64,000 nucleotides of DNA from Schmidtea polychroa (taxonomy: Eukaryota), in contig CM097885.1 in assembly GCA_044892525.1 (NCBI GenBank), positions 14,324,001 to 14,388,000 on the forward strand. The letters are read 5' to 3'. Each line of letters starts with the position of its first letter. Within the stretch, counting starts at the first letter, position 1. Shown one piece after another: positions 1-64,000 of the stretch. Below the pieces are notes generated by a model. That model was not told the DNA's origin and did not search any database. It saw nothing but the letters and a program-made list of their open reading frames with translations. The translations under genes and the position numbers were made by a program.

Positions 1-591
1 CGACACTCGCCTCCAAAAGATCCAATAGAATATAGGAAATCAAGGCAATACACCTATCCTCAACTTGCACTGGTCGCCAAACAATTCTGTGCTTCTCCTC
101 CTTCCAGCGTGGATAGTGAAAGAACCTTCAGTTTGGCTGGTCTTATATGCGATGACCGTCGATCAAACTTAACACCAGCCAAAACTGAGATGCTTCTATT
201 TTTAATGAAAAATCTCGATGTGGTCCGTTTTGACTACTAATAAACTAATGAAGATGTATATATTTATATAAACACATGTATTTTTTTATTTTTTCGTTTC
301 ACGTTACTTTGCTTGTTGCGAACAGATCTATGTTATATAATTTACATCCATGTTTCAAAAGACAACAAAATGAACGCTTCTCAATATCTTGTATTATCAC
401 CCATTGTATAATTTTTTCAGTTTTATTGATATGATTCATTTTAATAAATCGCCGTAGGTCATTGCAGTAGGTACAGGTCCCTAAATTATTTTCACGCACC
501 AGACATTTGATTCGACTTCGGCTTCGGCCAAATAGTAATTTAAAAATTTGAACTTCGGATTTCGGCAAAAAAGTCACTTCGGCAGGCCCTA
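1..591 (+). mobile_element. 3' end of a hAT DNA transposon (transposase C-terminal dimerisation domain plus right TIR)
   Basis: Frame 1 of 1-240 reads ...DPIEYRKSRQYTYPQLALVAKQFCASPPSSVDSERTFSLAGLICDDRRSNLTPAKTEMLLFLMKNL..*, a hAT dimerisation motif. It ends in TTCGGCAGGCCCTA (TAGGG-type TIR) at 591, directly against fold-back arm sequence. Confidence 0.8.
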
Positions 592-650
592 GCACCTAGT
601 TAAAAATATTTAGTAACCGATTGTTGGTAACTGTTGAATTATTATTATTA

Positions 651-743
<93 letters not shown>

Positions 744-3700
744 CATTAAAATTTCACTTTGACTTTGAAAAATATTTCATTGAAATTAACTTAAAAAATT
801 ATTTCATTAAAATTTACTTTTAAAATTAACTTTAAAAAAAATTCCATTTAAATTTTTATTAAAAATTACATTTCTCAAAAAAGTTGGTGGTTATTCAATC
901 TTTTGATAATAAATTTAAAAATCTTAGTTTAATTTACTTATTACATTACTTATTTAAAAATTATTACTCTAATTTACTCATTTAGCTTTAATTTAAAATT
1001 TGAACCATTGGTTACTTAATTTAAAATTTTGAACCTTAATTTACTTATTTAAAATTTTTAACATTAATTTACCTAATTATTCTTTATTTCTTAATTTTAC
1101 ATCATAATTTACTTAACAACTAATTATAACCATTATTTTCATATTTAACCAATAATTTCATGTGGTCATCTGGTTGGTATCTAGTTGACAGTGCTTAGTA
1201 CTAGGTATGTTGTACTTGGTTTTTAGTACTTGGTAGGTGGTTAATAATGCTTAGTACCTGGTTGTTGTTGGTTGTAAGTAGTTGGTAGCTAGTTGGTTGT
1301 AGGTACTTAGTAGTTGGTTAATAATGCTTAGTACCTGGTTGTTGTTGGTTGTATGTAGTTGGTAGGTGGTTGTAGGTAGTTGGTATCAGGTAACTGGTTG
1401 TTAGTAACTAGTTGTATGTACTTGGTATCAGGTAACTGGTTGTTAGTAACTAGTTGTAAGTACTTGGTATCTAGTTGTTAGCTGGTTGATAGTACTTGGT
1501 AGGTTGATAATGATTAGTACCTGGTTGTTGTCGATTGTGAGTAGTTGGTATCAGGTTGTTAGTAACTAGTTGTAGGTATCTGGTTGTAAATACATGTTCG
1601 TAAGTTACTGGTTGTTGGTACTAAGTTGTTGGTATCTGGTTGATGTTGGTTGTATGTACTTGGTGGGTGGTTGTAGGTACTTAGTAGTTGGTTGATGATG
1701 CTTAGTACCTTAGGGTTGTTGTTGGTTGTTAGTACTTGGTAGGTTGTATTTAGTTGGTTGTAGGTTGTAAGTAGTTGGTTGATAATGCTTAGTACCTGGT
1801 TGTTGACGGTTGTTAGTACTTAGTAGCTAGTTAATGGGTAGGTGGTTGTAGGTACTTGGTAGGTGGTTGTAGGTACTTAGTAGTTGGTAATTAATGCTTA
1901 GTACCTGGTTGTTGTCGGTTGTTAGTACTTGGTAGGTTGTAGTTAGTTGTTAGCTGGTTGTTGTGGGTTGTAAGTACTTGGTACCTAGTTGTTAGCTGGT
2001 TGTTGTCGGTTGTTAGTACTTGGTATGTGGTTGTAGGTACTTGGTTGATAATGCTTAGTAGCTGGTTGATGTTGGTTGTAAGTAGTTGGTATCAGGTTGT
2101 TAGTAACTAGTTGTAGGTATCTGGTTGTTAATAAATGTTCATAAGTTACTGGTTGTTGGTACTAAGTTGTTGGTTTGTTGTTGAATTTTTATTAAAATTT
2201 GTCTTTGAAAAATATTTCATAAAAATTTACATTAAAAATTACTTAAAAATTATTCTATTAAAATTTCCATTAAAAAATTTTCATAAAAAATTTTCATTAA
2301 AAAATTTCAATTCTCAAACACCTTCTATTATTTCAACTTTTTGTTAATAAATTTAAAAATCTTACTTTAATTTACTTATTACATTACTTATTTAAAAATT
2401 ATTACTTTAATTTACTTATTTAAAATTTTTTACCATTGATTACTTAATTTTAAAATTTGGACCTTAATTAACTTTAATTTAATTTTTTAGAACCTAAATT
2501 TACTTTAATTTTAAAATTTGGACCATTATTTACTTTAATTTAATTTTTTAGAACCTAAATTTACTTTAATTTTAAAATTTGGACCATTATTTACTTTAAT
2601 TTAATTTTTAGAACCTTAATTTACTTTAATTGAAAAATTTGGACCATAATTTACTGTAATTGAAAAATTTGGACCTTGATTTACTTATTTAGACCATAAT
2701 TTACTGTAATTTAATTTTTTAGGACCATTATTTACTGTAATTTAATTTTTTAGGACCATAATTACCTTATTTGAAAAATTTGAATTTTTTTTTTTGAATT
2801 TTAATTTTTTAGGACCATAATTACCTTATTTGAAAAATTTGAACCATAATTTACTTTAATTCAATTTTTAGACCCATAATTTACTGTAATTTAATTTTTT
2901 AGGACCATTATTTACTGTAATTTTATTTTTTAGAACCATAATTTACTTTAATTTAATTTTTTGAACCATAATTTACTTTAATTTAAAATATTTGGACCAT
3001 TGATTACTTTAATTTTATTTTTTAGAACCATAATTTACTTTAATTCAAAAATTTGGACCATAATTTACTTTAATTTAATTATTTAGAACCTTAATTAACT
3101 TTAATTTAAAATTTTGAACCTTAATTAACTTTAATTCAAAAATTTGGACCATAATTTACTTTTAATTTAATTTTTAGAACCTTAATTTACTTTAAGTTAA
3201 AAAATTTACCACGTTTTTTAGTGTAGACCACCTATTTCTATTGAAGTTCTCAGGACCAAGGAGACCCATGTCACTATAGTGTGATAAATCCTTGGCTTTT
3301 TTAGTGGTAGTCGGATTTTTGTATTGAAAAAAAATTTTTTTGTATTGCAAATCCCAGGACCAAGGAGATCCCCTCGCTATAGTGTGAAAATTCCATGCTT
3401 TTTTATTGAGACCGCCTTTTTGTATTGAAAATCCCAGGATCAATCGAGACCCCCTCACTATAGTGTGATAAATCCTTGGCTTTTTTAGTGGTATTCGGAT
3501 TTTTGTATTGAAAAAATTTTTTTTTGTATTGCAAATCCCAGGACCAAGGAGATCCTTAATTAACTTTAATTTAAAATTTTGAACCTTAATTAACTTTAAT
3601 TCAAAAATTTGGACCATAATTTACTTTTAATTTAATTTTTAGAACCTTAATTTACTTTAAGTTAAAAAATTTACCACGTTTTTTAGTGTAGACCACCTAT

Positions 3701-3930
3701 TTCTATTGAAGTTCTCAGGACCAAGGAGACCCACGTCACTATAGTGTGATAAATCCTTGGCTTTTTTAGTGGTAGTCGGATTTTTGTATTGAAAAAATTT
3801 TTTTTGTATTGAAAATCCCGGGACCATCGAGACCCCTCACTATAGTCTAATAAAAAAATTAAATTGGACCAAAAATCCCTGAACGCAAAAAATGTGAGTT
3901 GCAACAATTGCGTAATAAGAAGTTGCAACA
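592..3930. mobile_element. Truncated right arm of a second copy of the giant fold-back (Maverick-like non-autonomous) element
   Basis: Same module order as 45705-48890: (ATT)n, GT-rich degenerate repeats (~1180-2180), ~30-bp AT-rich GGACCATAATTTACT repeats (~2450-3190), CCCAGGACC/CACTATAG repeats, then GGACCAAAAATCCCTGAACGCAAAAAATGTGAGTTGC. The last ~40 bp of the terminus are missing. Confidence 0.85.
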
Positions 3931-5988
3931 ATTTTTAAAATTTTTTTTTTAAATTCAAGTCTACGTTTTCTGGATTATTGTAATTGTTTATTTTAGTGTT
4001 GCGACTAATGGTGAGTATGTGAGAGGACAGGGAAGCGGCCCTGGTGTTGGCCAAGAAGCTGCAGTTTAGAGTTGAAAAACTTAAAGGTCGGTGGAGGGAA
4101 ATGGAACACTCCTGGTTTCGAATGAAAGATATGAAAAGCGCATACATCAGATCCGATATCTGCAGGCGCAGAATGCCCAGCACTAGGTGGATCTCAGGAC
4201 ACTAAGAATTAGAATACGACAAATTGAGATCCGGATATCAGTGAACGGTTGATGATCACGTGGCGAAGCTGATTGAGTTGCTAGTTCCGATGGAACTATT
4301 TCCCACGAAGGACGGATCGACCGTGTATACAAATCAAGAACCCGAAATGTCAAGCAGTAATGCACTGTTATCCGGGAAAACTGGAGCGAACCAGGCAACA
4401 CATGCTGAAAGAAGCGCAAATTTTAGGCTGATTGGAACGGGCATTAAACTTGAATAAATGTGCTGTCTTCCATTAAGTTTTTAGAAAGCTTAAACCCGAA
4501 TTTTGTTTTTCGCACATCCTGATAAAATTCCAACTCCCAATGATATAAACATTGTGTAATTTAATCAAATCACCTCAATCTCAGTAAAAAAACAAGTCCA
4601 AACAATCCCATACAATCGCCATGAACATGATCATAGAACCAGGGAAGAGGTATGAGCGAGTACGCGGAACATCAGTCGAACTTTCTTGTGTCATGTTATA
4701 GACTTAGAATAAAATCTTGTCCTTGTTATTCTAAACATTAATGGGGAGAACTAATCAATATCGGAGACATGCCTTCTAACGGTAGTCGTCGAACCCCCTC
4801 GAATACTTTAACTTTACACGAGTATTCACCGATTCAATACAGTGCCAACGATGTATCCTGGGTTACACTGGACAGAGCACTGAGGGATATAGTTTGATTA
4901 CGTGTAACACTCAACAAATAAACTTTCATATTCCCAGCTAAAAATGAGACATATAGAGGTATAATAATAAAGATTAGGAATAGGAATTGTCCATGAACCC
5001 TAGGATTATCAGGGCGTTGGCAGTTCTATTTTCAAACATCATTTCTTACTGACAACCACCGACTTGATAAGTTATTTAATTATGACGTCAGGTGGTGGTT
5101 ACCATTTTTTTGTTGCAAGGTATGTGCAAGGCGATCCTGTAACTTGCAATGTTAATAGCAAGAAACTTTTATTTAAGAAAAAAAATAAATAAACATCTTC
5201 AGTTGAAATTTGAAAAGTACTCATTTTTTGCATCAGCGAAAATCCTAACTGTTTTAACAATCGTTCGGAAGCCGTAAAATTTTACAAAAATTCAAGGCCT
5301 GTTAATTTGTCACAAGAATATCTTTAATATATTCTAACTGTGAAAGTTCACAATAACCACTTACAAACATTACAAACACTTACTAAATTATTTTACCAGA
5401 TATTCTTTCGAAAGCAACAAAAAAGATTTCAAAATTTTTCCAAGCATTGCTTCCAATACATCCAATCTTTTTGGCACATATCATTTGAACCTTTCGATAG
5501 TTAAACATTGGTTTTGACTTGTCCACAACCAATTGCACCATTTTTTAAGAAATACATTAACACAAATAGGAATAAGTCAACTTTAATATTTGAAAAAATT
5601 GAATTTAGTAAACGAATTATTTAAAAATTATTTTTAATTTTCTATAGAACTGTCGAATAGCTGACTGTATAGCAAAATAAATATTCAGAATTTGTAACTT
5701 TACACATGTAATTATTATTCATATATAAACCAGCTTCCAAATTTAATATTAATATCGATCAAATATTAAATATTTCAAACTAGTTATTAGTTTCAAAATT
5801 AACATTCACATATTATAAACAATAAAGGACTTTAGAATATGGTCCGTTCATATAACACGAAAATTATATTTAAATTATAATGAAAAACATTACAAATGAA
5901 AACAAAGCAATATCAAATAAACATCTTTAAATTCTGGAAATTAGCCTTTATGATTATCATTAAAAACCAAGGTACAACCAACATTTGT

Positions 5989-6004
5989 GGTCCTAAAGAG
6001 GACC
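5989..6004 (-). terminator. Histone mRNA 3' stem-loop
   Basis: Minus strand reads AAAC-GGTCCT-CTTT-AGGACC-ACAAA, 35 nt after the H2B stop. 6-bp stem with 4-nt loop. Confidence 0.9.
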
Positions 6005-6039: not shown

Positions 6040-6411
6040 TTACTTTGAACCAGTGTATTTAGTTACAGCCTTGGTTCCTTCACTGACAGCGTGTTTAGCC
6101 AATTCTCCAGGCAAGATCAATCGGACAGCAGTTTGGATCTCTCTGCTGGAAATCGTTGATTTCTTGTTGTAAGTTGCCAACTTACTAGCTTCAGTTGCGA
6201 TTCTTTCGAATACATCATTAACGAAGCTGTTCATGATTGACATGGCTTTACCAGAAATTCCAGTATCTGGATGAACTTGTCTGAGAACTTTGTAGATATA
6301 GATACCATAGCTTTCTTTACGTTTGTGAGATCTCTTCTTTTTGTCGGATTTCACAACTTCTTTGGAAATTTTCTTAACTGACTTAGCAGCAACTTTTGCT
6401 TTTGGAGCCAT
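6040..6411 (-). CDS. H2B: Histone H2B (replication-dependent type, intronless)
   Basis: 123 aa containing [23 protein letters not shown]...[30 protein letters not shown], with a downstream stem-loop. Confidence 0.98.
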
Positions 6412-6479
6412 TTTCGATATTGTTATATAAATATTTAAATTATCGAATTTATATTTATATGGTTAACTTTTTTTGAAAT

Positions 6480-6499
6480 ATATTACGTTGCGGTATTTT
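6480..6499. promoter_or_regulatory. Conserved H2B upstream motif ATATTACGTTGCGGTATTTT
   Basis: Identical 20-mer ~70 bp upstream of all three H2B start codons (also ~36338 and ~59026), although the flanks of this copy diverge from the other two. Confidence 0.6.
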
Positions 6500-7988: not shown

Positions 7989-8617
<629 letters not shown>

Positions 8618-17606: not shown

Positions 17607-18223
<617 letters not shown>

Positions 18224-34531: not shown

Positions 34532-35845
34532 GTGTAGATAATAAGAAAAGGTGTGAGGACTATAGAATCTTGGAATGAACTCTTTCAACCTCCTCGCAAC
34601 CTACCGGTGATATTTTACGTGTATAATGAATTGTTGCCACGTGTTATGGTCCTGGTTACAATTTTTTCTAGTGAAATACAACAATAAATGTCTAGCAATA
34701 AATGTCACCTTTTAGTGTCTATACAGATATCTAAAGGAGGCCAAAAGGTTAAATAGAATAATATAATATAATTGCTACAAAAATTAGTTAATTGTTAATT
34801 AATTAAAATAAATCGTCCAAAATATTTGCTTTCAAAGCAAGATCTTTATGTTGAACAGGAGTCTTCGACCTTCGAGCCCAACATTCTTGATCTTTATTAC
34901 TACATTTAGAGTTTAGTTTATGCAATTAGTTTCTGCAACAATTATTTTATAGAAATATGATAACAACCTTTTGCAGGATAAATATTCAGCGGTGAAACAA
35001 TTAAAAGAACTCGAAGGACTCACAATAACTTTAGCTTGAGTCTTTCTACTCTTTCTAACATCACGAGATGACTTTATAAGTTTCTGTGCTTTTTAAACAG
35101 AGAAAGAAGCAGTGTATGGGAGTCTGTTTGCGAATAGGTGGCAGGAGAGCTAATAAAGGAGCTTCCGATGCAACAAAAGAATTGCAATTTGAAGCGTCCC
35201 AAAAAATGCCTCTAGTAAAACGTAATATCAGGCAACACAAACAATAATTTCAAATGAGCAAGATGCCGGATGGAATTATGCTCGTTATATATTTCTAAAA
35301 GGGGTCCGTAAACAGTAAAATATAATTTGTTGCAAACATTGCTTAACAAAAACTAATTAATTATTTATTAATTAAAATAATTATTAATCAAATGAAATTT
35401 AACCAATCACGAGGTAACCCAAATATCATTTGCTTTCAAAGTACATTTACAGGAGCCTTTGACCTTTTGCAATATATTAGTCAGACCTTGTGTCAAGAAA
35501 GAAACCTTCACAATATTTTATCTTGAATTTATATTGATCTCTTGCACTTGAAATAATTAAAAGAACCCGAAGGAATCATAATAACTTTAGCCACTCATTC
35601 TATCACTTCTTGAAGTAGCAATGCCTTCATCAGATTGTCTTTCAAATCTTTTACTCTCTTGCTAAGGACAGAATAGATCACAGGGCCTATTTGCCTTATT
35701 TATTGTTGCCACGTGTAAATGTTCTCATTGCAGTTCAAATACAAAAACAATTTACATGAAATACAAACATTACAAACGTATAAATGTCTATGAGAACATC
35801 AAATAGCATACAAAATCAAACTGTAATATCACAACCAACATTTGT

Positions 35846-35861
35846 GGTCCTAAAGAGGACC
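35846..35861 (-). terminator. Histone mRNA 3' stem-loop
   Basis: GGTCCT-CTTT-AGGACC-ACAAA downstream of H2B copy 2. Confidence 0.9.
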
Positions 35862-35896: not shown

Positions 35897-36268
35897 TTAC
35901 TTGGCACCAGTGTATTTAGTGACAGCCTTGGTTCCTTCACTGACAGCATGCTTGGCCAATTCTCCAGGCAAGATCAATCGGACAGCAGTTTGGATCTCTC
36001 TGCTGGAAATCGTTGATTTCTTGTTGTAAGTTGCCAACTTACTAGCTTCAGTTGCGATTCTTTCGAATACGTCATTAACGAAACTGTTCATGATTGACAT
36101 GGCTTTACCAGAAATTCCAGTATCTGGATGAACTTGTCTGAGAACTTTGTAGATATAGATACCATAGCTTTCTTTACGTTTGTGAGATCTCTTCTTTTTG
36201 TCGGATTTCACAACTTCCTTGGAAATCTTCTTTACTGATTTTGTAGCGACTTTTGCTGAAGGAGCCAT
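35897..36268 (-). CDS. H2B: Histone H2B, copy 2
   Basis: Intact 123-aa H2B with a downstream stem-loop. Confidence 0.98.
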
Positions 36269-37964
36269 TTTAATCTGAATTTTATAAATGATAAAAGTTC
36301 ATTCCTTCGTTATATATGATTATCATTTTTTTAAAATATATTACGTTGCGGTATTTTCAATGATAAAAATTAGAAAATTTAAATTTTGTTTCTGAAATAA
36401 AAACTAATTCAGTAATAATTTTTTATTTTACAAATAGAACAAAATGTGCAATTATTACAGAAATGAAGACCTGTTTAGGATTATTGAAATGTTTTTTTTA
36501 ATTAAAATTTTTTATAAATCTTCCGCTTTTATGCGAATTATTTCCACGCAAGAAATTATTACGCTGAGATAACATTTTAAAATTAAAATTTCTTTTAGAA
36601 ACTAATATTAATAATTAATTAATTTTTGTGACAATTTAATGTAATTTTCTAAGTTTTATTTTCTATTAAATACACAAAATGTGAGTGCAAAATAATTAAT
36701 TAATTTTTTTGCCATTTAACTCATGAATTAATTTTAATGTAATTTTCTGTGCTATTTTTATTAATTTTATCAACTTCTGTTGGGGTTAAATACACAAAAT
36801 GTGAGTGCAAAATAGTAGGTAGTTAGGAGCTCCCTGCAGCAATGACCCCCCCCCCGGGGGGGTCTGCTGCAACTTTTGATTACGCAATTGCTGCAACTCA
36901 CATTTTTTGCGTTCAGGGATTTTTGGTCCAAATTTTTTTTCAATACAAAAACGATGGTCCTGGGATTTTCAATACAAAAAATTTTTTTCAATACAAAAAT
37001 CCGACTACCACTAAAAAAGCATGGTAATTTAAGGTCTCAGGATATTTTCAATACAAAAAGCTGGTCTACACTAAAATAGCGTGGTAATTTAAGGTCTCAG
37101 GATATTTTCAATACAAAAATCCGACTATCAATAAAAAAGCATGGATTTTTCGAATTAAATTAAGGTGGGTCTCCTTGGTCCTGAGAAAAAGGTGGTCTAC
37201 ACTAAAAAACATGGTAAATTTTTCAATTAAAGTAAATAATGGTCCAAATTTTTGAATTAAAGTAAATTATGGGTCTAAAAATTAAATTAAAGTAATCAAT
37301 GGTCCTAAAAAATTAAATTACAGTAAATAATGGTCCAAATTTTTCAATTAAAGTAAATTATGGTTCTAAAAATTAAATTAAAGTAAATAATGGTCCTAAA
37401 AAATTAAATTACAGTAAATTATGGTTCAAATTTTTCAATTACAGTAAATTATGGGTCTAAAAATTAAATTACAGTAAATAATGGTCCAAATTTTAAAATT
37501 AAACTAAATTAAGGTTCTAAAAATTAAATTAAAGTTAATTAAGGTCCAAATTTTAAATTAAGTAATCAATGGTAAAAAATTTTAAATAAGTAAATTAAAG
37601 TAATAATTTTTAAATTAAGTAATCAATGGTAAAAAATTTTAAATAAGTAAATTAAAGTAAATTAAAGTAAGATTTTAAAAATTTAATTACAAAATAATAG
37701 AAGGTGTTTGAGAATTGAAATTTTTTAATGAAAATTTTTATGAAATAATTTTTAAGTAATTTTTAATAGAAATTTTAATGAAATATTTTTCAATGGTAAT
37801 TTTTAATGGAAATTTTTATGGAATAATTTTTTAAGTTAATTTTTAATGGTAATTTTTATGAAATATTTTTCAATGATAATTTTAGATGGAAATTTTTAAG
37901 ATAATTTTTAATGAAAATTTTTATGAAATATTTTTCAAAGACAAATTTTAATAATAATTCAACA

Positions 37965-39290
37965 ACAAACCAACAACTTAGTACCAACAACCAGTAACTT
38001 ACGAACATGTATTAACAACCAGATACCTACAACTAGTTACTAACAACCAGTTACCTGATACCAGATACCTACCAACTACTTACAACCAAAATCAACCAGA
38101 TACCTACAACTAGTTACTAACAACCAATTACCTGCTACCAAGTACTTACAACTAGATACCACGTACTAAATAACTCTCAAACAACCAAGTACCTACAACA
38201 AATTACCAGATACCAAGTACCTACAACTAGTAACTAACAACTAGTTACCTGATACTAAGTACCTACAACCACCTAACAAGTACTAACAACCAAAAACAAG
38301 CAACCAACCAGGTACCAGATACCACCTACTAAGTACCAACAACCAACTAGCTACCAGATACCTACAACTAGATACTAACAACTAGATACCAAGTACCTAC
38401 AACCACCTACCCATTATCTAGCTACCAAGTACTAACAACCAGGTCTCAAACAACTAAATACTAACAACCAGTTACCAACTACTAAGCATTAATTACCTAC
38501 AACTAGTTACTAACAACTAGATACCAAGTACTTACAACCAACATCAACCAGGTACTAAGCATCATCAACTAACTACTAAGTACCTACAACCTACAACTAG
38601 ATACTAACAACCAGTTACCTGCTACCAAGTACTTACAACTAGTTACTAACAACCAACCAACTAGGTACTAGACACCAAGTACTTACAACCAACATCAACC
38701 AGGTACTAAGCATTATCAACCAACTAAATACTAAGTACTCACAACCAACCAACTAGGTACTAGATACCAAGTACTCACAACCGACAACAACCAGGTACTA
38801 AGCATCATCAACTAACTACTAAGTACCTACAACCTACAACTAGATACTAACAACCAGTTACCTGATACCAAATACTTACAACTAGATATCAAGTACTATC
38901 AACCAAAAACAACCAACCAACTAGGTACTAGATACCAAGTACTAACAACCAACAACAACCAGGTACTAAGCATTATCAACCAACTAAATACTAAGTACTA
39001 ACAACCAACCAACTAGGTACTAGATACCAAGTACTCACAACCGACAACAACCAAGTACTAAGCATTATTAACCAACTACTAAGTACCTTCAACCAACTAA
39101 CAACCACCTACCAAGTACTAACAACCAGTTACCAACTACTAAGCATTAATTACCTACAACTAGTTACTAACAACTAGCTACCAAGTACATACAACCAGAC
39201 ACTAAGCATTATCAACCAAGTACTAACAACCAAGTAACTTACCTAGTACTGTCAACTAGATACCAAACACTTACAACCAGATGACCACAT
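37965..39290. repeat. CA-rich degenerate minisatellite domain of the left arm (mirrored as GT-rich at ~46230-47125)
   Basis: Shuffled short words such as CAACTAG, TACCAAGTAC, TACTAACAAC and CTAAGCATT. Confidence 0.9.
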
Positions 39291-39577
39291 GAAATTATTG
39301 GTTAAATATGAAAATATGGATTATATTTAGTTGTTAAGTAAACTATGGTGTAGAATTAAGAAATAAAGAATAATTAGGTAAATTAAAGTTAAAAATTTTA
39401 AATAAGTAAATTAAGGTTCAAAATTTAAAATTAAGTATCCAATGGTTCAAATTTTAAATTAAAGCTAAATAAGTAAATTAAAGAAAGATTTTTAAATTTA
39501 TTATCAAAAGATTGAATAACCACCAACTTTTTTGAGAAATGTAATTTATAATGAAAATTTAAATGGAAATTTAAATG

Positions 39578-39673
<96 letters not shown>

Positions 39674-40073
39674 TAATAATAATTCAACAGTTACCAACAA
39701 TCAGTTACTGATTATTTTTTAACTAGGTGCTAACAAATACTTACAACATGATACCACGTACTAACTAACTCTCAAACAACCAGATACTTACAACTAACTA
39801 CTAAATATTCTAAATTTTAAATTAAAGGAAACAATGGTTTAAATTTTAAATTAAAGCTAAATGAGTAAATTAAAGTAATAATTTTTAAATAAGTAATGTA
39901 ATAAGTAAATTGAAGTAAGATTTTAAAATTTATTAACAAAAAAATAGAAGGTGTTTGAGAATTGAAATTTTTTAATGAAAATTTTTATGAAATAATTTTT
40001 AGGATAATTTTTAATGAAAATTTTTATGAAATATTTTTTAAGTTAATTTTTAATGGAAATTTTAATGGAATAA

Positions 40074-40139
<66 letters not shown>

Positions 40140-40610
40140 TAATAATAATTCAACAGTTACCAACAATCGGTTACTGATTATTTTTTAACTAGGTGCTAAC
40201 AAATACTTACAACATGATACCACGTACTAACTAACTCTCAAACAACCAGATACTTACAACTAACTACTAAATATTCTTCACTGTATTTTATGAAATGCTT
40301 TTTAAATTAATTTTTTATCTATCTTCAAAAATATATTTAATTACAATCATTAGAAAAACCTTTTCAAATTTAACAAAAATGTTGATTTTCATCAAAAAAT
40401 GAATAATTGTCAACTCATCACCACATGGAATTCAAAATAATTTTAATTACAATGAAAGACTAATGAATTCTAATTTACAAAACATTCTTCTTTTAAATGA
40501 TAACTACTGACTTATTATTGCAAAGTAAAAATCGCATTCAATAAATACTTATTGTTGATCAGTTTTATTATATATACTCTGAGTTTATCCGACAGGATGT
40601 TTTGACCCCC

Positions 40611-40712
40611 TAAGGGTACAGGTCGTAAGGGTACTGGTCGTAAGGGTACTGGTCGTAAGGGTATTAGTCGTAAGGGTACTGGTCGTAAAGGTACTAGTCG
40701 TAGGGGTATTGG
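40611..40712. repeat. 15-bp tandem repeat GGTCGTAAGGGTACT
   Basis: About 7 copies following CTCTGAGTTTATCCGAC. Related arrays at ~42200, ~45255 (inverted) and ~63385. Confidence 0.9.
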
Positions 40713-43700
40713 TAACACTCTACCACAACCTACCCATTAACTAGCTACTAAGTACTAACCACTAGGTTTCAAACAACAACTACTAACAACCACCATCAAA
40801 ACCCATCGAGAAATTAACAAATATCAACCTACAATTATATAACAACAATCAGTAAACAACACTGTACCAACTACCAAATACAAAATATTCTTCATCGCAT
40901 ACACTATTTTCTTATCAAAATCTAAAAGTCAACCAACTACTTACAACCAACAACTATGTACTAACAAATTGATCTTTAAAAGCAAATACTCTTCACTTGA
41001 AAAATTGGATGAAAAATTATTTGAACTCAAGGCATCAATAACTAGGTAAAAATTGATTAAATAATTGTAAAAAATTTAAATTATTCGAAATAAATATCAT
41101 AAAAATTTAATTAATGGACAAGAAAAAAATTCTAGTCATCCAGTAAATAAAAAAAATACTGATCATTCAAGTTGAATCAACTAAGATAATAAATTAATAA
41201 GATAAGATCTAGTAGATAATTGATTTAGATTGAATAAATTAATTGAAATAAAATTAATTTTAATTATTTTTTTTAAAAGTAATACATGTACTCAAATTGA
41301 TTGACTGATTTCTCAATATATTCAAAAAATCAGTATAAATTCATTACAATTATCAAAGTCAGCAATGTACAATAAAAATAATTATCATTAAATTCCAAAA
41401 GAGACTAGATAACTAATGATAACATCTAACAAACCAGTAAATTCATTTAAATGACAATAATTGGTATATCCAAGTGAATTCTCCAATAAAATCATCTAAA
41501 AAGCATCAAATTTCCCTGAAATATCTATATCTTTTAAGATTAGTATCTAATCGATAAGTACTTGTTAAAGATCATATATTCACCTCAAACTAACAAGATT
41601 CCTTAAAATCCCTTAAATGACTATATTTCAACCCTTGTTATGTAATAAAATAGTCGCGGGTTGTTATGTAATAAACTAGTTTAAATTATATATCCTCCTC
41701 ACTTATATCCCCCCGATTCTCTATTTTCCACTAATTATTATCACTAATATTCCCCCAATTCTCCATTAATTATTCACTTATATCCCCCCGATTTTGATTA
41801 ATTATTCCCCACAAATATTTCTTTTAAAAGTTTTTTTATTAAATTTATGAATTTTATGAAATAATTTTAAATAAATTCAATTAATATATTTGCATTCTTA
41901 TCAACCTTCTTCTTATCTATGCCCATTCAATGATCCATTAATGAATTATTCTACCAATTATTTTCACCCATTTGAATTTATCATCGAGTAATGAATAATT
42001 TCCTCACTTTAATGAAGATTCTTACCACCTTCATTGTTAATTTTATCAAAGTTTAAAGAATAATTGTCTTTTCATTTTACATTGCTTACCACTTTAGAAT
42101 TTTTATCGAAATTTATGATAATTTGACTAATTCAATGAAAAATTTGAATGAGTTAATTAATATATACTCTGAGTTTATCCGACAAAATATTCTGTCCCCC
42201 TATGGGTATTGCTCACAAGGGTACTACTCACATTCAACATATCGCAAGGGTACTGATCATAAAGGTATTTAATGCTTTTATTTGAATGATTATTTAGGCA
42301 AATTTGTTGTTTAAGGCATTCATTGATAATTTTTAGAGTTGATGGTTTTAGTAAATATTCAAGTAAATTTCTATAATTTCTATTATTTTCATGAATTTCC
42401 GTAATTTTTTGTGAATATCAGTAATTTTTGTGGATATCTGTCATTTTCATGAATTTTTATCATTTTTGTGAATTTCTTTGATTTTTGTAAATTTCTATTA
42501 TTTTTGTGGATTTCTAACATTTTTGCAAATTTCATGTTTATTGAATGAATATTTAATAATTTAAAGTTAGTTCTAAGATAAATTTAATTAATTTCTTGAT
42601 AATTGGATGTATTTTTAATTTTAAATAAAAATTATTTTCAATGAGGTTAATAATTAGAGTTTGTACAATAATCAAGTGATAGGATAAATTTTTATGAGGA
42701 TATTGAACAATTTTCTAAGAATTTCATGTTGACTGATAAATTTAATTGATAAATTTAATTAATTTCTTGATAATTAGTTGTATTTTATTGAATAGTTTTT
42801 AAATAAAAATTAATTTCATTGACAATTAGGTTAATAATTAAGTGATAGAATAAATTTTTGATGATAACTTTGTAATATATTTGACTAGATAATTTTTTTC
42901 AATAATTTTCTAAGAGTATTTACTCATTGATGAACTTTTAAAACCTAAGCTAAGAAACCAACTTTATCAATGACTTTAAATTTACTTGATAATTATTGTA
43001 GAATATACTGAAATTTAGTTTGCTGTTATTGCTTGAAAATGATTGGCTGAATAGCTGAAGAATTATCATCAAACAATATATATCATCTCTAGTTAGGTAT
43101 TTGATGGTAAATATTTGTAGAAAATAATGAGTTTATTATATCTTTGTTACATAAGTCGACTTTAGCGTCAAAATGTGTTTTTAAAATATATTTAAAATAC
43201 CGCAACGTAATATTTTTTTCCCTGCCCTTCCATGATTTTGATTGGTTAGTGGGCTCTTATTATTTAGCTTCTAAATTATTTCTTTGGAAGAATGCCTGGT
43301 GTCTATAACAATTAATTAAAAGTCATATTTTTGAAGTTCTCTAAGGATTTTAAGAGGATTGATATATTAAAGTGCTCAAGTGGGTGGAATCTTTGGGGAA
43401 ATTAAGGGATATAATCGGATAGATGTTTAAAAGGGTAGAAATATTTGCTGAGAGATCGGTTAAGATGGGATATTGTCGGTGAGATTTAATGAGAGATCGA
43501 TTAAGATGGGATATAGTCGGTTAATATGGGAATATTTCATTTTAAGAAAGATATAGTCGGTTGCTTTTAATGAGGGAAGGGTTTCGATGGGAATCTTTTG
43601 AATATTTACATGGGAAATGTTGGTCAAATATCAATGTTTTTAAGGAAATTGCAATACATTAGTCAGTTATGAATCAATAATAATTATATCGTTTTATTAG

Positions 43701-45760
43701 GTTGTGATTAATCCATTGTATTTTAATTTAGATTTATGTTTTAGAATAATTTTTTATTAAATTTTCTTTTAATTATCCAGGGTTTTATTAAGTAGTGTTA
43801 ATGACCGATTTACTTGGTTTTGACAATGAAATCTTTATAGATAATTTGGATTGATATCAACTTTAAATTATTTTTATCTTTATTTAGACGGACAACGACA
43901 AAAGTTGACCATTTGAAGAAATATATTTTATTGAATGGATAAATTTAATCTTTCAATGGGACCTAGTCAGTTATATTTATTTTAAATTTCGAGTACAGTG
44001 ATTAACGAAAATTTAATTATAACCGGTTTATTTAGGGTTAATGATTTTACATGTTTTATAGGGAAATATTCGTGATAATAGGAAATAAAGTTAGAATTAT
44101 AGTCATTTAAGGGGGATTTTAAGCAATCTTATTAGTCTGAGGCAAATATATAACCTTTTAAGGATATTTATCGATAAAATACTAATCTTTAAAGTTAGAG
44201 TTATTTCAGGGAAATTTGATGGTTTTTAGATGATTTTAGTAAAATATTTGTAATAATATGAATTAAGGGTCGAAATATAGTCATTTAAGGGATTTTAAGG
44301 AATCTTGTAAGTTTGAGGTAAATATATGATCTTTAACAATTATTTATCATTAAAATACCAATCTTTAAATATTGATATATTTGGGGAGAAAATAATTCTT
44401 TTTAGATGATTTTATTGGAGAATTCACTTGGATATACCAATTATTGTCATTTAAATGAATTTACTGGTTTGTTAGATGTTATCATTAGTTATCTAGTCTC
44501 TTGGAATTTAATGATAATTATTTTTATTGTAGATTGCTGACTTTGATAATGGTAATGAATTTATACTGATTTTTTTGAATATTTTGAGCAATCAGTCAAT
44601 CAATTTGAGTACATGTATTACTTTTAAAAAAATAATTAAAATTAATTTTATTTCAATTAATTTATTCAATCTAAATCAATTATCTACTAGATATTATTTA
44701 TTAACTTAGTCGATCCATATTAACTTGAATGATCAGTATTTTTTTTTATTTACTGGATGATTAGAATTTTTTCTTGTCCATTAATTAAATTTTTATGATA
44801 TTTATTTTGAATAATTTAAATTTTTACAATTATTTAATCTATTTTTATCAAGTTATTGATGCCTTGAGTTCAAATAATTTTTCATCCAATTTTTCAAGTG
44901 AAGAGTATTTGCTTTTAAAGATCAATTTGTTAGTACATAGTTGTTGGTTGTAAGTAGTTGGTTGACTTTTTAGATTTTGATAAGAAGATAGTGTATGTGA
45001 TGAAGAGTATTTTGTATTTAATTGCTATTATTTTTATGTGTTGTTAGTTGATTGTTGGTACTAAGTTGTTGGTATCTTGTATTTGGTAGTTGGTACAGTG
45101 TTGTTTACTGATTGTTGTTATATAGTTGTAGGTTGATAATGCTTAGTACCTGGTTGTTAGTTGATTGTAAGTGTTTAGTATTTAGTTGTTTGAGACTTGG
45201 TTGTTAGTACTTCTTAGGTGGTTAATGGGTAGGTGGGGGGTTGAGAGTTAGCAATACCCTTACGACCTGTACCCTTAGGGGGTCAAGACATCCTGTCGGA
45301 TAAACTCAGAGTATATATAATAAAACTGATCAACAATAAGTATTTATTGAATGCGATTTTTACATTGCAATTAAAAAGTAATTAAAGTAATCAATTAAAA
45401 GAAAAATGTTTTGTAAATTAGAATTCATTAGTCTTTCATTGTAATTAAAATTATTTTGAATTCCACGTGGTGTTTTAAATTGATTGAGTTGTGGTTTTTT
45501 GATGAAAATCAACATTTTTGTTAAATTTAGACATTTTGAAAAGGTTTTTCTACTGATTGTAATTAAACATATTTTTGAAGACATATAAAAAATTAATTTA
45601 AAAAGCATTTCATAAAATACAATAAAGAATATTTAGTTGGTTGTTAGTACTTGGTTGTTTGAGAGTTAGTTAGTACGTGGTATCATGTTGTAAGTATTTG
45701 TTAGCACCTAGTTAAAAAATAATCAGTAACCGATTGTTGGTAACTGTTGAATTATTATTA

Positions 45761-45817
<57 letters not shown>

Positions 45818-48800
45818 TTATTATTCCATTAAAATTTCCATTAAAAATTAACTTAAAAAATATTTCATAATAATTTTCATTAAAAATTATCCTAAAAATT
45901 ATTTCATAAAAATTTTCATTAAAAAATTTCAATTCTCAAACACCTTCTATTTTTTGTTAATAAATTTAAAAATTTTAGTTTAATTTACTTATTACATTAC
46001 TTATTTAAAAATTATTACTTTAATTTACTCATTTAGCTTTAATTTAAAATTTAAACCATTGTTTCCTTTAATTTAAAATTTTGAACCTTAATTTACTTAT
46101 TTAAAATTTTTAACTTTAATTTACTTATCCTTAATTTGCCTATTTATCCTTAATTACTTAATTTTACACCATAATTTACTAAACAACTAATTATAACCCT
46201 TATTTTCATATTTAACCAATAATTTCATGTGGTCATCTGGTTGTAAGTGTTTGGTATCTAGTTGACAGTGCTTATTACTAGGTAAGTTACTTGGTTGTTA
46301 GTACTTGGTTGATAATGCTTAGTACCTGGTTGATGTTGGTTGTATGTACTTGGTATCTAGTTGTTAGTAACTAGTTGTAGGTAATTAATGCTTAGTACCT
46401 AGTTGTTGTCGGTTGTTAGTACATGGTAGATGGTAGCTAGTTGGTTGTAGGTACTTAGTAGTTGGTTGATAATGCTTAGTACCTGGTTGTTGTTGGTTGT
46501 TAGTATTTGGTAGCTAGTTGGTTGCATGTTTTTGGTTGTTAGTATCTAGTTGTAGGTACTTGGTATCAGGTAACTGATTGTTAGCTGGTTGCTTTTGGTT
46601 GTTAGTGCTTGGTAGGTGGTGGTTAGTTGTTAGCTGGTTGTTGTTGGTTGTAAGTACTTGGTAGGTGCTTAGTAGTTGGTAACTGGTTGTTAGTTCTTGG
46701 TATCTAGTACCTAGTTAGCTAGTTGTAGCTAGTTAATGGGTAGGTGGTAGCTAGTTGTTAGCTGGTTGTAGCTAGTTAATGGGTAGGTGTTTGTAGGTAC
46801 TTAGTAGTTGGTAACTGGTTGTTGGTATCTAGTTGTAGGTATCTGGTTGATGTTGGTTGTAGGTACTTAGTAGTTGGTTGTAGGTACTTAGTAGTTGGTA
46901 ATTAATGCTTAGTACCTGGTTGTTGTTGGTTGTTAGTACTTGTTAGGTGGTTGTTGGTAATTATTGCTTAGTACCTGGTTGTTGTTGGTTGTTAGTACTT
47001 GTTAGGTGGTTGTAGGTACTTGGTATCAGGTAACTGGTTGTTAGTAACTAGTTGTAGGTATCTGGTTGTAACTACATGTTCGTAAGTTACTGGTTGTTGG
47101 TACTAAGTTGTTGGTTTGTTGTTGAATTATTATTAAAATTTGTCATTGAAAAATATTTCATAAAAATTTCCATTAAAAATTAACTTAAAAAATTATTTCA
47201 TAAAAATTTTCATTAAAAAATTTCAATTCTCAAACACCTTCTATTATTTGTTAATAAATTTTAAAATCTTACTTTAATTTACTTATTACATTACTCATTT
47301 TTAAATTATTACTTTAATTTACTTATTTAAAATATTTTACCATTAATTACTTAATTTAAAAATTTGGACCTTAATTTACTTATTTAGAACCTTAATTAAC
47401 TTTAATTCAATTTTTAGACCCATAATTTACTTTAATTCAATTTTTTAGACCCATAATTTACTTTAATTCAAAAATTTGGACCATAATTTACTGTAATTCA
47501 AAATTTTTGACCATAATTTACTGTAATTTAATTTTTTAGGACCATAATTACCTTATTTGAAAAATTTGAACCTTAATTTACTGTAATTCAAAAATTTGGA
47601 CCATAATTTACTGTAATTGTAAATTTTGGACCATAATTAGCTGTAATTTAATTTTTTAGAACCATTATTTACTTTAATTGAAAAATCTGGACCATAATTT
47701 ACTGTAATTGAAAATTTTGGACCATTATTTACTGTAATTTAATTTTTTGGGACCATAATTTACTGTAATTGAAAAATTTGGACCATAATTTACTGTAATT
47801 CAAAAATTTACCACGTTTTTTTTTAGTTTAGACCACCTTTTTCTCAGGACCAAGGAGACCCACCTGAATTGACCTAGAAAAATCCATGTTTTTATATTGA
47901 GACCGCCTTTTTCTATTGAAAATTTTTTTTGTATTGAAAATCCCAGGACCATCGTTTTTGTATTGAAAAAAATTTTTTGTATTGAAAATCCCAGGACCAA
48001 AGAGACCCCCTCGCTATAGTCTGAAAAATTCCATGCTTTTTTAGTGGTAGTCGGATTTTTGTATTAAAAAAAATTTTTTGTATTGAAAATCCCAGGACCA
48101 CCTTTTTGTATTGAAAATATCCTGAGACCTTAAATTACCATGCTTTTTTATTGAGACCGCCTATTTGTATTGAAATTCTCAGGACCAATTAGACCCACCT
48201 GAATTGACCTAGAAAAATCCATGCTTTTTGTATTGAAATTCTCAGGACTAAGGAGACCCCCTCGCTATAGTCTGAAAAATTCCATGCTTTTTTAGTGGTA
48301 GTCGGATTTTTGTATTAAAAAAAATTTTTTGTATTGAAAATCCCAGGACCCCCTTTTTGTATTGAAAATATCCTGAGACCTTAAATTACCATGCTTTTTT
48401 ATTGAGACCGCCTATTTGTATTGAAATTCTCAGGACCAAGGAGACCCACCTGAATTGACCTAGAAAAATCCATGCTTTTTGTATTGAAATTCTCAGGACC
48501 AAGGAGACCCCCTCACTATAGTGTGATAAATCCTTGGCTTTTTTATTGAAGACCGCCTTTTTCTATTGAAAAATTTTTTTTTGTATTGAAATTCTCAGGA
48601 CCAAGGAGACCCCCTCACTATAGTGTGATAAATCCTTGGCTTTTTTATTGAAGACCGCCTTTTTCTATTGAAAATTTTTTTTTTGTATTGAAAATCCCAG
48701 GACCATCGAGACCCCCTCACTATAGTCTGAATAATCCATGCTTTTTTATTGAGACCGCCTTTTTGTATTGAAAATCCCAGGACCATCGAGACCCCCTCAC

Positions 48801-49598
48801 TATAGTTTGATAAAAAAAAAATTGGACCAAAAATCCCTGAACGCAAAAAATTTGAGTTGCCGCAATTGCGTAATCAAAAGTTGCCGCAAAAAAAAGGTAA
48901 TTGCGGCAGGGAGCTACTAACTACCTACTCAAAATAGTTAAATTCCCCCAAAATTAATTCAAATTCAAAAGTAAATTAAAGTGCAAAAATTACGAAAAAT
49001 CAAAATTTTAGTGCAAAATAATTAACTAATAAATTTATATTAATAATTAAATTTTATTTAAAATATTATCACATTAATACAGGGGAAAAGTTCTTAAAAT
49101 GTGAATTTCATATTTGTGTAGATTTAACAATGTCACGTGATGTAAAATAATTTTTTATTAATTTTTTATTAAACTTTATCAGATTGAAAATTAATTTATT
49201 TTTGTCTTTTAACTTATTCTGATTAATTATCTCGTGTTATTTTCATATTTATATAGTTTCAACAAGATGAGAGTATACCTATATCATCAAAGTAAAAGAA
49301 ATACATACATTGATTTTGTAATGACTTTAATATTAAGAAAAATTTTTAGAAAGCAAAAAATCCAAAAACCGTAAAATACAATACAATTAACTTTAAAAAT
49401 AATTATTTTGTAACAATTTTTTTTCGGATATTTAGCGCAAATCGAGCGCCTCTAACTTTTTGGAGCCCTTGGCAAATGCTAACTTAGCCCTAAGGAAGAG
49501 CTGGTGTGACCAATATGAAATAATAGGTTACGGATGATTACATTTTTATATATAAATAAGGTGTGTTAGATATACCTGAAGTCACGGATACTCTAGAT

Positions 49599-57598: not shown

Positions 57599-58533
57599 TA
57601 AAAACTTAATAAATAAATTGAACCAAATAATTATCTTGTGGGAAATAACTTAATCCGAAGGTCCCAAAGACATATCCAATCTCGGTCAACACTTGATCTA
57701 TACGTACATCTCTTTAAGGTACATTGCAAAAAGTGAAAACTATACAGAGAAATCAATTTATAAGGTCTATAAAACTTTTAGAATCTTGGAATAAACTCTA
57801 TAAAACCTCCTCACAACCTACCGGTGATATTTTACGTGTATAATGAATTGTTGCCACGTGTTATGGTCCTGGTTACAATTTTTTCTAGTGAAATACAACA
57901 ATAAATGTCACCTTTAAGTGTCTATACAGATATCTAAAGGAGGCCAAAAGGTTAAATAGAATAATATAATGAATTGCATAGATTGCTACAAAAATTAGTT
58001 AATTAATTAAAATAAATCGTCCAAAATATTTTCTTTCAAAGTTTATCTTAAGCAAGATCTTTATGTTGAACAGGAGTCATCGACCTTTTGCAATATATTT
58101 GTAAGATCGTGTCAAGAGAGCCCAACCTTCTTGATCTTTATTACTTTAATTTAGAGTTCAATAAAGCAGCCCAATGATCCTGCAACGATTATTTTAAAGA
58201 AATATGATAACAAACTTTTGCAGGATAAATATTCAGCCCTGAAATAATTAAAAGAACCCGAAGGAATCATAATAACCTTAGCCACTCATTCTATCACTTC
58301 TTGAAGTAGCAATGCCTTCATCAGATTGTCTTTCAAATCTTTTACTCTCTTGCTAAGGACAGAATAGATCACAGGGCCTATTTGCCTTATTTATTGTTGG
58401 CACGTGCCATTCTCATTGCAGTTCAAATACAAAAACAATTTACATGAAATACAAACATTACAAACGTATAAATGTCTATGAGAACATCAAATAGCATACA
58501 AAATCAAACTGTAATATCACAACCAACATTTGT

Positions 58534-58549
58534 GGTCCTAAAGAGGACC
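58534..58549 (-). terminator. Histone mRNA 3' stem-loop
   Basis: GGTCCT-CTTT-AGGACC-ACAAA downstream of H2B copy 3. Confidence 0.9.
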
Positions 58550-58584: not shown

Positions 58585-58956
58585 TTACTTGGAACCAGTG
58601 TATTTAGTGACAGCCTTGGTTCCTTCACTGACAGCATGCTTGGCCAATTCTCCAGGCAAGATCAATCGGACAGCAGTTTGGATCTCTCTGCTGGAAATCG
58701 TTGATTTCTTGTTGTAAGTTGCCAACTTACTAGCTTCAGTTGCGATTCTTTCGAATACATCATTAACGAAGCTGTTCATGATTGACATGGCTTTACCAGA
58801 AATTCCAGTATCTGGATGAACTTGTCTGAGAACTTTGTAGATATAGATACCATAGCTTTCTTTACGTTTGTGAGATCTCTTCTTTTTGTCGGATTTCACA
58901 GCTTCCTTGGAAATCTTCTTTACTGATTTTGTAGCGACTTTTGTTGAAGGAGCCAT
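58585..58956 (-). CDS. H2B: Histone H2B, copy 3
   Basis: Intact 123-aa H2B with a downstream stem-loop. Confidence 0.98.
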
Positions 58957-60469
58957 TTTAATCTGAATTTTATAAATGATAAAAGTTCATTCCTTCGTTA
59001 TATATGATTATCATTTTTTTTAAATATATTACGTTGCGGTATTTTCAATGATAAAATTAGAAAATTTAAATTTTGTTTCTGAAATAAAAACTAATTCAGT
59101 AATAATTTTTTATTTTACAAATAGAACAAAATGTGCAATTATTACAGAAATGAAGACCTGTTTAGGATTATTGAAATGTTTTTTTTAATTAAAATTTTTT
59201 ATAAATCTTCCGCTTTTATGCGAATTATTTCCACGCAAGAAATTATTACGCTGAGATAACATTTTAAAATTAAAATTTCTTTTAGAAACTAATATTAATA
59301 ATTAATTAATTTTGTGACAATTTAATGTAATTTTCTAAGTTTTATTTTCTATTAAATACAGAAAATGTGAGTGAAAAATAATTAAATTCCTCCAAAATTA
59401 ATTCAAATTCAAAAGGAAATTAAAGTGCAAAAATTACGAAAAATCAAAATTTTAGTGCAAAATAATTAACTAATAAATTTATATTAATAATTAAATTTTA
59501 TTTAAAATATTATCACATTAATACAGGGGAAAAGTTCTTAAAATGTGAATTTCATATTTGTGTAGATTTTACAATGTCACGTGATGTAAAATAATTTATT
59601 AATTTTTTATTAAACTTTATCAGATTGAAAATTAATTTATTTTTGTCTTTTAACTTATTCTGATTAATTATCTCGTGTTATTTTCATATTTATATAGTTT
59701 CAACAAGATGAGAGTATACCTATATCATCAAAGTAAAAGAAATACATACATTGATTTTGTAATGACTTTAATATTAGAAAAATTTTTAGAAAGCAAAAAA
59801 TAAAAATACCGTAAAATGCGATGCAATTAACTTTAAAAATAATTATTTTGTAACAAATATTATAAATTTTAATTTCATATTTGTGTAGATTTAACAATGT
59901 CACGTGAAGTAAAATAATTTTTAACCCTTTCTAAGGCAAAGGAAACTAAAAGTGACGTAAAACTCAAAGTTACAAATGATCATAAAAAAATAAAAACATA
60001 GAAATTTGTTCTCTTGTGGCTTAAAATGTGAATTTCATATTTGTGTAGATTTAGCAATGTCACGTGATGTAAAATAATTTTTTATTAAATTTTATTGGAT
60101 TGAAAAATTATTTATTTCTGTCTTAACATATTTGGAGTTAGAATGTTATATTAACTCTGTTTAGTGCCGGCTCGAGATCGCTTATCACACACAAAAATCA
60201 GACTAGATATACCAACGCATTTCCGTCACAAATCAATCAAAAAAAAGTAAATTTGAGGCGTATTGAAAGAAAGATTGAGCTAGGCATCATCGATAATATC
60301 GACGGCCACAGTAAGGAATGTCAGAAAGAGCTGGCCTCAATTCAGACTCCAAAAGTGAAGATTCTAGTTTCATGTAGTTTCATGGATACTTGAAGAACCT
60401 CCGTGGATACGTGAACTACCACGGGGTTCTCGGCGAAGCCACTCTACTAAGTAGAGTTTGTAAGCATTT

Positions 60470-62616: not shown

Positions 62617-63229
62617 AGTAGGGTAAAGTGTGGACCCGGGAACAAAGAACTATTACGTAATCGACGACGTCACAGGGGAAATTACATCATACCCCTTTAC
62701 CGCGGAGAGGGAATATTTTAAAATTTTTAAAAGTTACGTAACAAAACATATTAAATAATAAAGACACATTACATAACAAAGTCATATTACATAACAAATA
62801 CACATTACACAACAAAGACATGTTACATAACACAGGCATATGGCTCATAAATTTAAACTAAGAACTGTTACGTAACAAAGACATATTACACAACAAAGAC
62901 ATTTCAACGAAGAAGGACATATGTCTAATCAATTTAAACAAAGAAGTATTACACAAGAAAGACATTTTAAGACACATGACTCATTAATTTAAACAAAGAA
63001 ATATTACGTAACAAAAGCATTTTAAGAAAGAAAGACAGATAAATTTCAACAAAGAACTATTACGTAACAAATATATTTACTGCACAAAGAAACATGACTC
63101 ATCATACTTTTTAATTATTAATTATATTACGTTGCGGTATTTTAAAATTCAAATATATTTTAAAACACATTTTGACGCTAAAGTTGACTTAATTACCAAA
63201 GACATAATAAAATTATTGAACATGTTTTG

Positions 63230-63320
<91 letters not shown>

Positions 63321-64000
63321 ATTATATAGTCAGAGTTTATCCGACAAGATATTCTGTCCCCCTATGGATACTTGTTGCAAAGATACTGGTTGTAAAGGTA
63401 CTGGTCGTAAAGATACTGGTCGTAAAGATACTGGTCGTAAAGGTACTGCTAAAAATATTCAAGGCAAAACTTTAACAAAAAATTCTAAATAATATACTTT
63501 AAATATACACTCAAACTAAAATTTATTAACACATTCACACTCATCATCTCCGCATTTCATAACAATTTCAACAACATGATCTATACAATCGTTATATACA
63601 CGCGGTTCAGTATCCGTAAATTCCTCCATAGGTTCATCAATTTCTTAAATGATTTCCTCATCATCTTCTTGAATGTTTTCTTCATCAATTTGTTCAGTTT
63701 CATCAAATCCTGAATCTTCACTTTCTGCTACCCAGTCTAATGCATTTGTAACAGATAATATGTCCTCCATTTTTACACCAGATATTTCTGCTAATTTTTC
63801 CAATAAAAAGTTTATTACAAATTCGAAATATTAAATAATTCGATAATTAACTAATCATATTAACCTTTTTCTGTAGTCATTATTAACACTTTAAAACTAT
63901 AATGTATATTTGTTTATAGAATGTCTTTGTTAAAGTTTTGCATTAATATAGAAAATAAGTGAAAAACAAATATGACTAAATACATTTATTAAATACATCA
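62617..64000. mobile_element. Probable left end of a relative of the fold-back/Maverick-like element, running off the window
   Basis: Starts AGTAGGGTAAAGT, then ATTACATAACAAAGAC-type repeats. 63124-63203 is the reverse complement of ~43141-43213. 63333-63450 matches 42170-42270 and the 15-bp repeat. Confidence 0.55.
63518..63810 (-). pseudogene. Decayed acidic ORF of unknown function
   Basis: LLEKLAEISGVKMEDILSVTNALDWVAESEDSGFDETEQIDEENIQEDDEEII*EIDEPMEEFTDTEPRVYNDCIDHVVEIVMKCGDDECECVNKF*, with one internal stop. Confidence 0.45.

Follow-up and report, generated by a model that had tools for sequence, protein, structure and literature searches.

A putative histone promoter box of Schmidtea polychroa recurs in the terminal repeats of a single Maverick family

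Genes and Maverick pieces in the window

The stretch of Schmidtea polychroa DNA analysed here (64,000 nt; assembly GCA_044892525.1, contig CM097885.1, positions 14,324,001 to 14,388,000; hereafter the window) contains three H2B genes, pieces of Maverick elements of the families here called A and B, and five copies of a 20-bp word, the histone box. Its features are as follows.

590..3930, no strand: single satellite-rich arm of family-B type, related to the giant element, without box
5987..6004, minus strand: histone 3' stem-loop of the first H2B gene
6040..6411, minus strand: first H2B gene, intronless, 123 aa
6480..6499, minus strand: histone box of the first H2B promoter; the gene strand reads AAAATACCGCAACGTAATAT; its ATG follows after 68 bp; no change is listed for it in a second organism (see below)
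35844..35861, minus strand: histone 3' stem-loop of the second H2B gene
35897..36268, minus strand: second H2B gene, intronless, 123 aa
36338..36357, minus strand: histone box in the promoter of the second H2B gene, 69 bp upstream of its ATG
36814..48929, no strand: giant element, a gene-less foldback Maverick derivative of 12.1 kb with family-B ends (AGTAGGTAG) and a CAAAAT target-site duplication
about 36814-41636 and 44265-48929: satellite-rich inverted arms of the giant element
43194..43213, minus strand: histone box in the spacer of the giant element, in a module common to family-A terminal repeats; the two ends of the element are about 6.4 and 5.7 kb away
58532..58549, minus strand: histone 3' stem-loop of the third H2B gene
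58585..58956, minus strand: third H2B gene, intronless, 123 aa, a recent duplicate of the copy at 35897 (98.5% over 1151 bp)
59026..59045, minus strand: histone box in the promoter of the third H2B gene, 69 bp upstream of its ATG
62308-62360: a further Maverick-type end (AGTAGTATA), from a different family, immediately ahead of the family-A one
62617..64000, plus strand: left end of a degraded family-A Maverick, with a AGTAGGGTA end followed by bZIP-type words and then the box
63124..63143, plus strand: histone box in the left terminal repeat of this Maverick, 507 bp from its end

The five exact copies of the word (6480, 36338, 59026 and 63124 as given on the plus strand, 43194 on the minus strand) are those reported in an earlier note on this DNA, and they are real: in 100 shuffles of the window, the average was 0.02 matches when up to three mismatches were allowed. 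The distance of about 70 bp from the three H2B start codons also stands (68-69 bp), but the positions quoted there for the ATGs are the starts of the motif; the ATGs lie at 6411, 36268 and 58956 on the minus strand. The flanks, described as unrelated, do differ between histone and element copies; the two element copies, however, share about 60 bp of homologous sequence downstream of 43194 and 63124. Two of the H2B promoters are recent duplicates, and the first has diverged around an unchanged box. Among the H2B copies lie six first exons of ARF-like small GTPase genes (8225-8617, 17619-17972, 22074-22466, 31438-31830, 51105-51497 and 52505-52897), with which they form a local duplication cluster. 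Three tandem broken H2B copies (loci L035-L037) still have the promoter box.

The label "Maverick-like" given to the elements of the window is borne out. The giant element has AGTAG ends, a 6-bp CAAAAT duplication and an empty paralogous site, and 62617 marks the left end of a coding Maverick, now degraded, which runs beyond the window to about 67640 and includes remnants of a TBP-like gene, the ATPase, the integrase and the capsid region. The three elements do not form one family, as had been assumed: the element at 62617 belongs to family A and the ends of the giant element to family B. For both there are matching autonomous families, with 56-62% identity between polymerases. The giant element contains no ATG-initiated open reading frame of at least 90 aa; because it lacks core genes but has Maverick-type ends and a target-site duplication, we regard it as a non-autonomous derivative. 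Its spacer includes pieces of family-A-type repeat modules, and the box copy at 43194, which is some 6 kb away from both ends of this gene-less element, is probably a passenger. We also considered whether the element at 62617 had captured an H2B gene beyond the window, and rejected this; the polymerase remnant past the element is inverted and only 66% identical to that of family A.

The box at histone promoters

Histone genes of the genome were collected by family and protein searches, and 46 classifiable genes were scored for the 16-bp core of the box, with up to three mismatches, within 300 bp of the ATG. This count omits fragments and unclassifiable frames (L067, L068, L080-L082, L146, L186, L195-L200) and 9/44 low-ranking PF00125 matches. 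The core was found at 31 of the 46 loci, namely at 25/30 genes with a histone stem-loop and at 6/16 others (H1 7/9, H2A 8/12, H2B 9/11, H3 1/6, H4 6/8). The background was 1/1320 control windows taken from 40 evenly spaced stretches, and 6/866 in a Maverick-rich set. When the box was masked, the promoters fell into 34 unrelated lineages, 19 of which carry the box. The word first noticed at H2B is therefore present at other histone promoters of all five classes, and we regard it as a putative promoter box of most stem-loop histone genes.

The box lies 50-115 bp before the ATG at 30 loci and 192 bp before it at one, and is followed by a TATA-like word at most loci other than H1. Its orientation is constant within each class, one way in H2A, H2B and H4 and the opposite way in H1 and H3. 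A matrix built from 22 host sites has an invariant CAACGTA, tolerated changes at inner positions and variable flanks; because of this combination of an invariant core with tolerated inner positions, the box is a candidate factor site. Its GCAACGT core may resemble HINFP selection motifs.

Six genes have the box and no stem-loop (four H1 genes, one truncated H2B duplicate and one H2B gene with a degenerate distal site). Five of the 30 stem-loop genes have no box (three H3 and two H2B; L062-L064, L074, L076); these have TTGTTTA 22-101 bp before the ATG and possibly represent a second class of histone promoter. The box is absent from two H3.3-like genes and from the 1.5 kb upstream of both PCNA loci, and two RRM2 loci were uninformative, their first exon not having been located. 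On this sample (PCNA, 2/2 without), it appears not to be a general S-phase word.

A contig of 1631 bp from a second organism (runs X11 and X15, from two studies) covers the start and promoter of an H2B gene at about 87% identity. Over 163 bp it has 20 other letters and 3 gaps; 14 of the changes are listed, and none of these falls in 6479-6499, with changes at 6478 and 6500 on either side. At 12% divergence, the chance of 20 unchanged bases is about 7%, at a single locus and with 6 of the 20 changes not listed, and taken alone the apparent conservation is weak support for the box. The depth of the contig is low over the box; contig depth does not equal copy number. A metagenome search gave five matches. 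Two lie on A/T-rich contigs (L203, L205) that combine the box, a TATA word, an intronless orphan non-histone frame with a basic tail and the same stem-loop; the protein of L203 has no family and no named relative. The three others (L201, L202, L204) lie in bacterial-looking coding DNA and were taken as chance. The box was found in none of the viral contigs.

In mammals, Oct-1 binds the octamer of H2B promoters and HiNF-P the H4 element, according to the available text of PMC5706932. Like these sites, the box is proximal, lies upstream of TATA, is conserved across paralogues and is tied to stem-loop genes. It differs from the H2B-restricted octamer (ATTTGCAT) in being another word that occurs in five histone classes, and from the mammalian subtype elements in general in being one word of 16-20 bp for all five. 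In planarians, the stem-loop is reported for only a subset of histone genes (PMC10954484 and PMC11663942, available parts). A study of planarian promoters, in the text available, found no motif enriched among stem-cell genes and presents Polintons as being under active repression (PMC10558129); for one stem-cell, S-phase class of genes the box would provide a defined DNA word, with which its putative activator could be isolated directly.

We found no description of the box, or of mimicry of histone signals by Mavericks, in the literature, where logos in figures are not searchable. The letters of the motif retrieved no relevant full text, only one unrelated sheep paper, and do not occur in the text supplements of PMC10558129 and PMC11275719 or in 12 of the 29 files of PMC12660999. 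The available parts of PMC11410931, PMC11275719 and PMC12660999 contain nothing on the box. A histone-wide promoter box common to the ends of one Maverick family thus appears to be new, and is more general than was first read from the window.

Arrays of the box in family-A terminal repeats

The genome contains 4643 exact copies of the 20-mer; its reversed control has none. Among the first 30 matches listed, there were 17 distinct places, and in all 17 inspection of the flanks identified a Maverick end or an end-derived module. Most genomic copies belong to one Maverick family, family A. The earlier note had seen a danger in the motif being part of a ubiquitous unrelated repeat. By number it is part of a common repeat, but that repeat proves to be the Maverick, from which the host copies stand apart as a class of their own. 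The downstream module common to 43194 and 63124 has 1365 exact anchor matches. In another sample, 18 of 30 loci (L040-L048, L050-L055, L057, L059, L060) represent a third repeat context, which holds the box behind ATTATG(A/C)GAGCTG; related loci are L149-L151, L167 and L176, and exons of a duplicated kinase-like gene are found close to several of the copies. An snRNA or other Rfam gene behind this context was rejected (no Rfam match in 13 loci).

The end sequence beside 63124 has 587 exact matches, many of them in inverted pairs about 15.5 kb apart. Six such family-A pairs were analysed, and all six have terminal inverted repeats, AGT-type ends and 6-bp duplications (15.2-15.8 kb). The box is present in all six, as the earlier note expected of other copies of the element, with 2-8 boxes in each terminal repeat, at both ends and pointing inwards. 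Each array is preceded by TGACGTCA-type (bZIP-type) words and a C/G run and begins 142-282 bp from the end; the spacing between boxes is 27 bp in 20 of 39 cases.

Maverick genes were found in five of the six elements, the sixth being a gene-less palindrome. The polymerase (1341 aa) is 58% identical to a PF03175-positive polymerase and has no direct match to PF03175; the integrase matches PF00665 with E 1.9e-7, just under the cut-off, and the packaging (A32) ATPase matches PF04665 over the cut-off. The capsid candidate has no sequence match in Pfam or PDB; by its Atlas features it scores 0.97-0.98 against clusters in which 11-39% of the members have PF21738, and family A likely encodes a double-jelly-roll capsid. 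A cysteine protease was not recognised among the 11 family-A frames scanned. The cargo includes a spliced Bcl-2-like gene adjoining one terminal repeat and a TBP-like gene (L129:2459-2900; L130:3940-4401). Most genes adjoining the ends point towards them, and only the Bcl-2-like gene points inwards. Family A thus shares with Mavericks/Polintons, whose hallmarks are defined in PMC8097293 (available part), the AGT-type ends, terminal inverted repeats, 6-bp duplication, polymerase, integrase, packaging ATPase and probable double-jelly-roll capsid; unlike the Mavericks in the literature searched, it has histone-box arrays at its ends, TBP-like and Bcl-2-like cargo and histone stem-loops in related DNA.

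There are at least five polymerase families, 55-65% identical, and among those checked the box is confined to one. It is absent from the repeats of two other families (0/4 coding elements). In a sample of 20 stretches chosen by polymerase score, which is biased away from family A and covers one side only, 18 have no site; of the remaining two sites, one lies in a nested family-A-type end and the other outside the element. Of 30 module copies picked by the downstream anchor, 8 have the exact box, 7 have it with one mismatch, 4 with three or four mismatches, and 11, all of one subfamily, do not have it. Since other abundant families and these 11 copies lack the box, it is dispensable for spread.

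That a single polymerase family, out of at least five, has the box favours the direction from host to element. We consider it somewhat probable that family A took the box from its host and uses it to recruit the activator of the histone genes in cycling cells. A sequence-specific host factor would read the box at histone promoters; family A would have captured the consensus, or converged on it, and then multiplied it; and the arrays would make the ends accessible and activate early genes at the time when the histone genes fire, in the S phase of stem or germ cells. They may also assist protein-primed replication. The suggestion in the earlier note that the elements mimic or have captured a histone cis-element agrees with this at the level of sequence, a histone-wide box having been amplified in the terminal repeats of one family.

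The opposite direction, an origin of the word in Mavericks followed by its donation to histone promoters, we judge very improbable. Element copies far exceed host copies, and the array unit resembles H1 and H3 promoters in its inward orientation and its A/T-rich flanks. Donation, however, would have required separate events in five histone classes at a fixed distance, Maverick DNA was found at 0/13 histone loci, degenerate variants occur among the host sites, the box is kept in the second organism and only one family has it.

The box could also be real in histone promoters and a functionless hitch-hiker in Mavericks, captured once and spread by slippage and by homogenisation between terminal repeats. 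Other successful families that were checked do without it, and one non-autonomous subfamily has lost it (11/30 copies). The units are parted by A/T runs and vary in number (2-8 per family-A end, in an A/T-rich, slippage-prone context), and other tandem repeats abound in these terminal repeats. Yet the element copies equal the host consensus exactly, across modules with differing upstream flanks, the arrays are kept in six of six family-A elements, and the stem-loop, a second histone-specific signal, also occurs in Maverick DNA (see below). We regard a mere passenger as unlikely.

Recruitment of a histone-gene activator by family A would have a precedent of a convergent kind in adenovirus, which uses an H2B factor at its ends. 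NF-I and NF-III/Oct-1 serve adenovirus replication (PMC6141750, available part), and, like adenovirus, family A is a protein-primed DNA element with a histone-promoter site in its terminal repeats (PMC6141750, PMC5706932). There are also differences: the box is not the octamer and is histone-wide rather than H2B-specific, family A is integrated, and its 2-8 tandem copies lie 142-443 bp from the left end, whereas adenovirus has one site beside the origin. The bZIP-type words (TGACGTCA) of family-A ends may be compared with the ATF sites contained in adenovirus ends.

This precedent bears on a further reading, according to which the arrays are mainly an auxiliary origin, with a host factor helping to load the protein-primed polymerase at the end, as NFI and Oct-1 do in adenovirus, rather than driving transcription. 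The boxes are symmetric at both ends whatever gene adjoins, always point inwards and accompany a polymerase of the protein-primed type. The first box, however, lies 142-282 bp from the end, as opposed to nt 23-36 for NFI in adenovirus (PMC8160523, available part), and families without the box are abundant; we hold a predominant role as origin to be slightly less likely still than a passenger box. If, as we prefer, the box recruits the histone-gene activator, it would offer a Maverick a concrete way of timing its activity to dividing stem or germ cells, the route by which its insertions are passed on. With perfect sites numbering in the thousands, transposon ends might in addition titrate the histone activator away, and the silencing of Polintons by piRNAs would then be linked to histone supply.

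All three elements in the window do lie close to an H2B gene (0.5, 2.1 and 3.7 kb), and the earlier note proposed that the box favours insertion near histone loci. We found no such bias. With at least 300 bp of Maverick sequence per 10 kb as the threshold, evenly spaced controls, and the cluster in the window and the large histone cluster on C1 left out, 0/13 other histone loci scored, compared with 8/40 controls (Fisher p = 0.18). The C1 cluster has one polymerase match about 10 kb from an H3 gene, which together with the three pieces 0.5-3.7 kb from H2B genes is what speaks for steering. Against it stand the 0/13 histone loci, the 587 family-A ends (100 matches listed, spread along C1) as against a few dozen histone genes, and the family-B ends, without arrays, of two of the three elements in the window. 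Steering of integration by the box is extremely improbable, and the closeness is best read as a property of a Maverick-rich duplicated region.

Histone stem-loops in Maverick DNA

The genome contains 62 exact histone stem-loops. We took 27 stem-loop loci that were not assigned to histones, some of them with two loops and one tandem array being sampled once. Maverick DNA lies within 4.2 kb of 17 of the 27, compared with 9 of 40 controls (p = 0.002, on non-independent loci, 15 of which are one family). At these 27 loci the box itself was sought within 300 bp of the start of the gene and rejected, as none has it. One study has reportedly described non-histone stem-loop transcripts in planarian stem cells.

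The main family of these loci (L342-L343, L212-L217, L220, L221, L225, L226, L229, L230) encodes a 108-aa orphan frame, which is preceded by the histone-type word TTTGTTTAA in most copies and followed by the stem-loop; the protein has no family and no named relative. Of five wider contexts, one is a palindromic element of 10.7 kb with AGTAG ends and a CACATA duplication (C2:122855275-122865995), which contains a pair of copies, and the others are nested Maverick debris with unresolved ends. In addition, stem-loop cassettes lie about 250 and 480 bp behind two broken Maverick polymerase genes, on the strand of these genes (L209; L288:3936-4050), with one exact or three degenerate histone stem-loops.

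It is possible, though rather doubtful, that Mavericks are more complete mimics of histone genes, with the box at their ends, a second promoter word and a stem-loop at their cargo and a stem-loop at the polymerase, and that they produce non-polyadenylated S-phase transcripts in stem cells. If this is true, Mavericks would run on the machinery of the host's histone locus, from the activator to stem-loop processing, in pluripotent stem cells. Maverick derivatives of the foldback (palindromic) kind are common in the genome, as are Mavericks nested within one another (L107-L108, L133-L134, L139-L141, and inverted polymerase pairs).
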